Source: Escherichia phage JP4. Taken from it: a DNA stretch of 64,000 nt. This document shows, piece after piece, positions 44,227 to 44,490 of the stretch. How positions within the stretch are numbered: position 1 is the first letter of the stretch; the number at the start of each line of letters is the position of its first letter. The stretch lies in the sequence record PQ330092; one strand, 5' to 3'. The notes beneath the pieces are model-generated. The model saw only the letters and a list, made by a program, of their open reading frames with translations, was not told the origin of the DNA and did not search any database. The translations under genes were made by a program, and so were the position numbers.

Positions 44227-44490
44227 ATGAACACTATCGAAATCACTATCAATGCACACGTATACGACAACGTAGTACTGCAAACTACTATGACCGCTAA
44301 TGATACCAGTACTTTGCGGAATACTGTTATTAGTGCCGTATGTGCTGCAATCGGTGATGTCGCCCTGGAAAATGCAAAACACGTAAACGATGGTTTCACT
44401 ATGTGCAAACGTGATAACGCAAAACATATCATCGTAGAAGGTTACGGCGGTGTAGAATATAATGTTTATATGAAAAAAGTACTTGCATAA
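44227..44490 (+). CDS. hypothetical early protein (87 aa)
   Basis: Track ORF; the C-terminal KKVLA* is encoded by the next cassette (AAAAAAGTACTTGCATAA). Confidence 0.8.
   Translation: MNTIEITINAHVYDNVVLQTTMTANDTSTLRNTVISAVCAAIGDVALENAKHVNDGFTMCKRDNAKHIIVEGYGGVEYNVYMKKVLA

Follow-up and report, generated by a model that had tools for sequence, protein, structure and literature searches.

In T4-type phages, promoter-early stem-loop (PeSL) cassettes combine a sigma-70-like promoter with a stem-loop (Arbiol et al. 2010, PMC2839356; Comeau et al. 2014, PMC4122927), and excised mini-circles of a gene and its cassette have been sought by inverse PCR (PMC2839356). The morons of lambdoid phages are single genes that each come with a promoter and a terminator, the whole being acquired or lost together (PMC2839356). 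A term search of both PeSL papers returned no mention of Rak2-like phages, the group that includes Asteriusvirus (PMC2839356, PMC4122927). For one Rak2-like phage, vB_PcaM_CBB, the retrieved passages of the published description report a terminal repeat of ~22 kb and RpoD-like early promoters with an UP-like element (Buttimer et al. 2017, PMC5259590); a repeated cassette, a hairpin, a role in recombination, and an overlap with stop codons are not described in those passages. The paper on phage fEgEco12 does not mention promoters (PMC13070987), and the literature within our search, outside which most subscription journals lay, contained no description of PeSL-like cassettes or of AGTACT enrichment in Asteriusvirus.

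We analyzed 64,000 nucleotides of Escherichia phage JP4 (PQ330092; hereafter, the window). The source is an Asteriusvirus (PBECO4/121Q-like) jumbo coliphage, and the region flagged by a first-pass annotation is 95–98% identical to Asteriusvirus Escherichia phages such as PBECO4 and 121Q, whose genomes are ~350 kb long. The window wraps across the genome end and contains a complete and a partial copy of a direct terminal repeat (Table 1), so that each feature in 26792..43886 is duplicated at +20,114. The right end of the repeat coincides with the terminal-repeat ends of the relatives vB_Ec-M-J, in which a direct terminal repeat of 21,525 bp is annotated, and fEgEco12, whose 20,993-bp terminal repeat was confirmed by restriction digests (PMC13070987). 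Outside the repeat boundary, the genes of the relatives overlap and have no cassettes. The terminal repeat is probably an early region of the host-takeover type, in which nearly each small gene is predicted to form its own transcription unit, under the control of its own copy of a dispersed promoter–hairpin cassette. The pre-early region of T5 and the host-takeover module of SPO1 comprise small early genes, strong host-type promoters, and a long direct terminal repeat, in lineages and hosts unrelated to Asteriusvirus. We know of no description, in T5 or SPO1, of a single repeated promoter–hairpin cassette as a unit of exchange.

Table 1. Positions of the terminal repeat, genes, and promoter cassettes in the window (cassette positions such as +5 are counted relative to the -35 box).
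Feature	Position	Strand	Details
Direct terminal repeat, copy 1	26792..46905	+	20,114 bp; identity perfect at offset 20,114 to the window end; contains all cassettes
Direct terminal repeat, copy 2 (partial)	46906..64000	+	17,095 bp; identical to 26792..43886
78-aa gene	31740..31976	+	TAA directly before AGTACTTGAT
orf69	34988..35197	+	Ends AAT AGT ACT TGC AAT TAG (..NSTCN*); reads through the -35 box, stop in the spacer (+7)
Cassette over the orf69 end	35178..35266	+	TTGCAA 35188..35193, TATAAT 35210..35215, then hairpin and Shine-Dalgarno site
GNAT acetyltransferase gene	38187..38543	+	Pfam Acetyltransf_1, 37 bits (cutoff 20.7)
Cassette 3' of the GNAT gene	38541..38621	+	GTACTTGCA 38543..38551, degenerate -10 box TATAGT, hairpin
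Composite stem-loop and promoter, AAAGGGATTGACTCCGGTCAGTCCCTTT GCTATTAT	39895..39930	+	Stem over the -35 box, T-rich run after it; from consensus scans and repeat family D10
orf84	41708..41962	+	TGA stop inside TTGACA (41959..41964), stop +1
Hairpin-less mini-cassette, TTGACA-N17-TACTAT	41959..42015	+	Repeat family D14; second copy, 82% identical, starts at 42235
Cassette 5' of orf87	44138..44226	+	TAA of its TAAAAAGTACTTGCA is the stop of the preceding 63-aa ORF (43949..44140)
orf87	44227..44490	+	Ends ATG AAA AAA GTA CTT GCA TAA (..MKKVLA*), stop +5
Cassette 3' of orf87	44474..44557	+	A-tract 44474..44478, GTACTTGCA 44479..44487, TATAAT 44505..44510, hairpin 44521..44539 (-15.0 kcal/mol, z = -2.4), Shine-Dalgarno site ~44545..44550; ATG of the next gene at 44558

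The terminal repeat contains ~48 sigma-70-type promoter-like sites when weaker variants are counted, and ~23 of these constitute one repeat family of 57–99 nt. A repeat finder recovered 20–23 copies of a 57–71-nt unit on a single strand, and the strict cassettes in the repeat lie on the plus strand in every case. The unit consists, in order, of an A-tract (often TAAAAA), GTACTTGCA or (A)TTGACA, a spacer of 16–17 nt that often ends in AGTACTG, TATAAT, GTTTTACAT, a GC-rich hairpin, a Shine-Dalgarno site, and ATG. These are predicted promoters, identified by sequence match only, in which a -35 variant (TTGCAA, TTGCAT, or TTGACA) with an A-tract on its 5' side is followed by N16–17 and TATAAT. The sequence AGTACTTGCA, with at most 1 mismatch, occurs 70 times (5.6 expected), and nine perfect TTGACA-N16/17-TATAAT sites turned up within 14 kb in an independent scan with the consensus. 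Folding of 10 leaders gave in all 10 a GC stem of 7–9 bp with energies of -11 to -15 kcal/mol. The stems have the form GGGG..CCCC, begin a few bases past the predicted transcription start, and vary in sequence between copies; no U-run follows them in the 10 folded leaders, and in this the leader stem-loop resembles a 5' mRNA hairpin more than a terminator. Only the TTGACT-class elements described below resemble intrinsic terminators. The cassette is likely to be built as an A-rich UP-like tract, a -35 box, a -10 box, a predicted start at ACAT, a 5' stem-loop, a Shine-Dalgarno site, and ATG.

Like PeSLs, these cassettes (i) are repeated units of ~100 nt that comprise an AT-rich tract with an upstream stop, a sigma-70-type promoter, a G-run/C-run stem-loop, a Shine-Dalgarno site, and a start codon; (ii) lie between small genes of no assigned function in a hypervariable region; and (iii) bound indels and replacements between close relatives, with crossovers inside them giving chimeric cassettes. 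Five PeSL features can be recognized in the predicted elements: promoter boxes with an AT-rich 5' region, the stem-loop, the span from stop to start, the many copies, and the bounded indels. The two differ in that PeSLs belong to T4-type phages, where they are scattered in internal hyperplastic regions, whereas the present cassettes belong to Asteriusvirus and are confined to a 20-kb direct terminal repeat. In addition, unlike in PeSLs, the stem-loop lies in the predicted transcribed leader and lacks a U-run, and the -35 region carries a phage-specific AGTACT motif. From their sequence, we identify the cassettes as PeSL-like recombination linkers, that is to say, a known arrangement seen in a new phage group. 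The likeness to vB_PcaM_CBB is narrower: in the retrieved passages, that phage has predicted sigma-70 promoters with A-rich upstream elements before short hypothetical early genes, some of them in the repeat, but the promoters number only 18, three of which are in the repeat (PMC5259590). Lambdoid morons differ in that they are thought to move by illegitimate recombination without conserved flanks (PMC2839356), whereas here the flanking cassette supplies the homology.

The relation of the cassettes to rearrangements was read from blastn segments, chained for the repeat against each of nine relatives (vB_Ec-M-J, E9.1, fEgEco12, ELP-22, BF17, EJP2, 121Q, EC22.5-2, and TH47). The repeat is highly mosaic, with no relative spanning at least 80% of it in one piece despite identities of 95–98%. 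We defined the cassette zone as -25..+95 of the -35 box, which covers 28.7% of the repeat. Of 78 unique endpoints of insertions, deletions, and replacements, 59 fell in this zone (28.7% expected; binomial P ~1e-17), an excess that would also result from selection against gene-disrupting recombinants, which by itself favors intergenic junctions. Homology on the right-hand side started at -25..+2 in 18 of 39 cases (6.7% expected), and homology on the left-hand side ended at +30..+95 in 23 of 39 (15.8% expected), positions whose precision is inflated because BLAST segment ends run through the shared cassette. The two flanking segments overlapped over the cassette by 15–108 nt in 11 window-side and 12 relative-side cases; such overlaps indicate that a gene and its cassette were gained or lost as a unit between two cassette copies. 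Examples of overlaps and indels are found at 28895–28974, 35407–35464, 40731–40838, and 43594–43692, and at the window-specific ORF 40199..40399.

Units consisting of a single gene and its cassette are also common to the repeat and to W70 and SF1-1, phages of the Vequintavirinae with genomes of 137–146 kb, at nucleotide identities of 82–94% and in a different order. The early regions of W70 and SF1-1 have the same layout of TAA, A-tract, TTGACA, -10 box, ACAT, hairpin, and Shine-Dalgarno site. The GNAT gene is 94.4% identical in nucleotide sequence to its counterpart in Shigella phage SF1-1 (contig L016, 2875..3231) and 91.0% identical to that of the same-genus phage 121Q, which points to a recent transfer between subfamilies. 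Taken with the distribution of endpoints and the 15–108-nt shared flanks, these units bear out the proposal of the first-pass annotation that the cassettes are breakpoints of modular gene exchange. The comparisons strongly support the cassettes as sites of gene deletion, insertion, replacement, and exchange, including exchange with unrelated coliphages that have cassettes of like design.

The first-pass annotation had also reported that four ORFs end in cassette sequence (orf87 with KKVLA*, orf69 with STCN*, the GNAT gene with TAG, and orf84 with TGA), and had inferred that the cassettes landed in or recombined with coding sequence and set the 3' ends of these ORFs. All four ends read in the sequence exactly as it described them. 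The four ORFs are real genes, because their substitutions relative to the relatives concentrate at third codon positions (8/5/27 for orf87 against its EJP2 homolog, and 12/13/26, 4/3/25, and 1/3/22 for the others).

To place these ends among those of the other genes, we considered 34 promoters with an ORF of at least 40 aa ending nearby. The stop lies 3–25 nt on the 5' side of the -35 hexamer in 28 of the 34 junctions, including that of the GNAT gene (-6). In three junctions it lies in the -35 box or the spacer (orf84, +1; orf87, +5; orf69, +7); of the rest, one is at +23 and two are further upstream than -25. The stop codon is TAA in 30 junctions. TAAAAA also occurs immediately 5' of GTAC in 7 of the 9 cassettes at which no ORF ends, and the TAA therefore belongs to the cassette consensus. 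Intergenic distances are ~80–95 nt. At 35–40% GC, ~90% of 100-nt stretches hold a stop codon in any given frame. The genes are packed up to the next predicted promoter, and the stop, nearly always TAA, normally lies inside its A-rich tract; the overlaps reported by the first-pass annotation are the extreme tail of this tight-packing distribution, and reading into the cassette is the exception.

A distribution of this kind, with 28 of 34 stops simply in the A-rich tract, is also what would be seen if the overlaps were due to genome compaction alone, that is, to minimal intergenic space with no part played by cassette recombination in the ORF ends. Two of the four genes behave in this way. The stop of the GNAT gene is the TAG of TAGTACTTGCA, whose G is the first base of GTACTTGCA, and lies at -6 from the TTG of the -35 box. 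In SF1-1, the GNAT gene retains ..PIMILS and TAG and is followed by tactaaaaagtaTTGACA, another cassette. The stop is unchanged whichever cassette comes next, and by this comparison it is the gene's own rather than the cassette's. The gene is absent from BF17 (junction 38140|38561) and EC22.5-2 (38162|38578), with both junctions inside the flanking promoters; because the two junctions differ, the gene was lost twice independently. A clean crossover at AGTACTG between two window cassettes was considered for the BF17 loss and rejected, since the spacer matches neither parent.

The other such gene, orf84, encodes a ParE-like toxin domain (PF24732, 42.5 bits; cutoff 24.4). Its homologs in fENko-Kae01 and GAP32, which belong to other genera, end with cgT TGA CA inside TTGACA-N17/18-TATAAT, so that the TGA within TTGACA has been kept across genera at 40–45% protein identity, whereas the RaK2 homolog has a separate TAA (aga TAA gtgTTGACA). 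The last residue is R in all four proteins (window, fENko-Kae01, GAP32, and RaK2). Judged from these homologs, the orf84 overlap is old, stable, and at the natural C-terminus. Conservation of orf84 extends across the Rak2-like jumbo phages; fENko-Kae01 has it in the terminal repeat, and the K64-1 annotation calls it a YafQ-like toxin. Three relatives (L002, L004, and L014) are without the neighboring ORF 41986..42234, an absence that we attribute to recombination between the mini-cassette copies at 41959 and 42235.

The end of orf69 does not fit compaction alone. The orf69 alleles of 121Q and BF17 are 68–72% identical to that of the window in amino acid sequence, and their nucleotide identity is only 57–58% over codons 31–63 and 94% over the last 18 nt. 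The tail is ..STCN* or ..NTCN* with a GTACTTGCA-type cassette and ..VDSTIK* with the TTGACA-type cassette of EJP2, where the ORF reads through the promoter (aat gTT GAC Agt act atc aaa TAG cgTATAAT). Protein similarity to EJP2 ends at residue 65 of 69, that is, at the cassette edge. The tail thus switches with the type of cassette, and in these alignments it is determined by the cassette. In EJP2, an ORF of 129 aa (contig L006, 19408..19797) joins the first ~45 residues of the homolog of ORF 34710..34982 to the orf69 homolog (window 34710..35197), which reflects either fusion of the genes or, in the other lineage, their separation.

A second observation against compaction alone comes from the 78-aa gene. 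Its W70 homolog has 117 aa, and the similarity stops at residue 76, where W70 continues with aaatcaCTTGCAAAGTtaaaagc. This sequence is identical over 11–12 nt to the cassette cacTAAAAAGTACTTGCAAAGTaat of 121Q, minus the 9 nt TAAAAAGTA, and looks like a scar of the -35 box placed exactly at the point of divergence. Recombination at these sites is also evident from the breakpoints and the flanking cassette repeats. Compaction without any contribution of cassette recombination therefore explains the GNAT and orf84 ends, fails for orf69 and W70, and is in our judgment an unlikely account of the ORF ends as a whole.

The 78-aa gene matches the phrog_9227 profile over 1–77. With a profile of 77 positions, the short form is the usual one, and the long W70 form is derived. 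In W70, the ORF seems to have run on through a decayed cassette, which is the reverse of a cassette that lands in a gene.

The end of orf87 is less easily assigned. The TAA and the four sense codons before it (K V L A) fall in the A-tract, the -35 box, and the spacer of the next promoter. No orf87 homologs were found beyond Asteriusvirus-level relatives by tblastn against 50,697 phage records or by a search of 5.8 billion proteins. Small changes at the cassette edge alter the tail: in contig L010, the A-tract is one A shorter, which gives KKYLHNN* with the promoter intact, and in contig L011, GTACTTTCA gives KKVLSK*. The phage 121Q is without orf87; the junction there is 44186|44474, and 48 nt of cassette are shared. 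EJP2 has a hybrid cassette, made up of the 5' part of a TTGACA-type cassette and the 3' part of the cassette 5' of orf87. In four EJP2-type contigs, orf87 ends with ATG AAA AAG GTA ACA GCA TGA (..MKKVTA*), the stop overlaps the ATG of the homolog of the window's 63-aa ORF, and no cassette or promoter follows. These C-terminal residues are thus present with no adjacent cassette, which counts against the first-pass reading of this ORF. The window and EJP2-type tails differ at 4 positions in 15 nt, which fits either direction of change: the KKVTA* end may be ancestral, with the cassette then recombined into or onto coding sequence, or it may just as well be the remnant of an earlier -35 box. We also considered loss of a stop codon by a T-to-A change from ATG TAA AAA GTA, the form found at 45982, to ATG AAA AAA GTA; all known orf87 homologs already have AAA at the second codon. 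As an example of an ORF end set by a cassette, orf87 appears ambiguous. The claim that the module sets ORF 3' ends accordingly holds for orf69, in which the tail follows the cassette type, and fails for the GNAT gene and orf84, which have their own ends.

The overlaps are best explained, and probably so on the junctions compared here, as a by-product of tight packing and of recombination at cassettes; they do not in themselves indicate that cassettes transpose into genes. Packing accounts for most of them, and the cassette shapes the overlap only in some cases, namely orf69 and the variants of orf87. In this account, cassettes would recombine by homology while the phage replicates or when two phages infect one cell, and exchanges would follow. 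An upstream ORF would run on to whichever in-frame stop comes first in the -35 box or the spacer after a minor alteration of the cassette's 5' edge, for instance the gain or loss of one A in the A-tract, the loss of a stop codon, or a crossover that replaces one cassette type by another. The outcome would be a short, cassette-encoded, and apparently dispensable tail, as may be the case in orf87 and orf69. Where TTGACA follows a codon ending in T, its TGA could serve permanently as the stop, as in orf84.

It is quite improbable that the cassettes move as units into the interior of coding sequences, by insertion or recombination, and so truncate genes and give them new C-termini and stops: the window and EJP2-type ends of orf87 (AAAAAAGTACTTGCATAA and AAAAAGGTAACAGCATGA) would accommodate a cassette joined at a short shared sequence in the tail if the EJP2 type is ancestral, and the 78-aa and 117-aa forms of the 31740..31976 gene do diverge at the -35 box, but the 77-position PHROG profile makes the short form the norm, the clear W70 scar runs the opposite way to the landing proposed by the first-pass annotation, the cassettes are always at gene boundaries in one orientation, the ORF end is outside the core promoter in 30 of 34 junctions, and the orf84 and GNAT ends are independent of the cassette. 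In the junctions read, no target-site duplication was seen besides the cassette itself, and a non-systematic look identified no transposase.

Several further repeated elements were observed in the window. The AAAGGGATTGACTCCGGTCAGTCCCTTT GCTATTAT class has four copies, the other three of which start at 35875, 43164, and 45422. They belong to four non-coding units (35875..35999, 39895..40010, 43164..43288, and 45422..45540) that are terminator-like and promoter-like together: a stem-loop over the -35 box of the TTGACT element and a T-rich tail are followed by ~110 nt (..agcccacagggtgca..gtgtatct..cagtactgaaaactattt) that lead into the next cassette. These units, which have no Rfam match, may be small RNAs or insulators. 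Non-coding units of ~90 nt that are predicted to be transcribed lie between two promoters at 30141..30258, 40022..40137, and 32449..32560. Their sequence follows the pattern caggacggggaac..ccgttaagtag.ccaggagtaag..ctcccctgataaaa; the copies are 88% identical to each other and 83–91% identical to a unit in the Vequintavirinae phage W70 (contig L015, 2024..2204). They are candidate small RNAs, likewise with no Rfam match. Neither Rfam (E up to 0.1) nor ARAGORN detected a non-coding RNA in the terminal repeat.

The gene-poor left part of the terminal repeat contains an array with an 8-nt period (27538..27697; GGATGGCT, AGACGGCT, and AAACGGCT), which lies near a CAGTACTG cluster and may act as a signal for replication or packaging. 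Outside the repeat, the window has promoter-like sites repeated on the minus strand at 7364, 13524, and 15547. They have the form GCCAGTAC..(G/A)TACTGGC(A/T)-N15-17-TATA(A/G)T, followed by a Shine-Dalgarno site and ATGTTACC or ATGCTACC. In the EJP2 annotation, paralogous minus-strand genes ("GTPase regulator") adjoin the terminal repeat.

The palindrome AGTACT occurs 238 times in 1..46905 (16.6 expected), an over-representation of ~14-fold (for example, at 27131, 35431, 38134, 38561, and 44652), and CAGTACTG occurs 79 times in the window (0.6 expected). Coding and non-coding sequences alike contain the motif, at a higher density in the terminal repeat; it accounts for the GTAC of the cassettes and for the AGTACTG that precedes many -10 boxes. 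Other AT-rich palindromes occur at expectation, and GGTACC is absent (0 against 8). The cassettes could be imagined as a shared adaptor, with built-in TAA, promoter, 5' hairpin, and ribosome-binding site, through which unrelated virulent coliphages, Asteriusvirus (350-kb) and Vequintavirinae (140-kb), trade single genes, the exchange perhaps being targeted by a phage protein that recognizes AGTACT; we consider this combined proposal doubtful.

Our findings are unlikely to surprise the specialist greatly. They supply a ready catalogue of predicted strong early promoters and 5' leaders, and they imply that taxonomy is poorly served by the genes present in the terminal repeat. Several annotated "hypothetical proteins" end in residues that derive from a promoter read in frame, and such C-termini should not be over-interpreted. 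For the biology of these phages, the cassettes extend modular shuffling mediated by such elements, so far described in T4-type phages, to the early region in the terminal repeat of Rak2-like jumbo phages, and they show single-gene traffic between two unrelated coliphage subfamilies.
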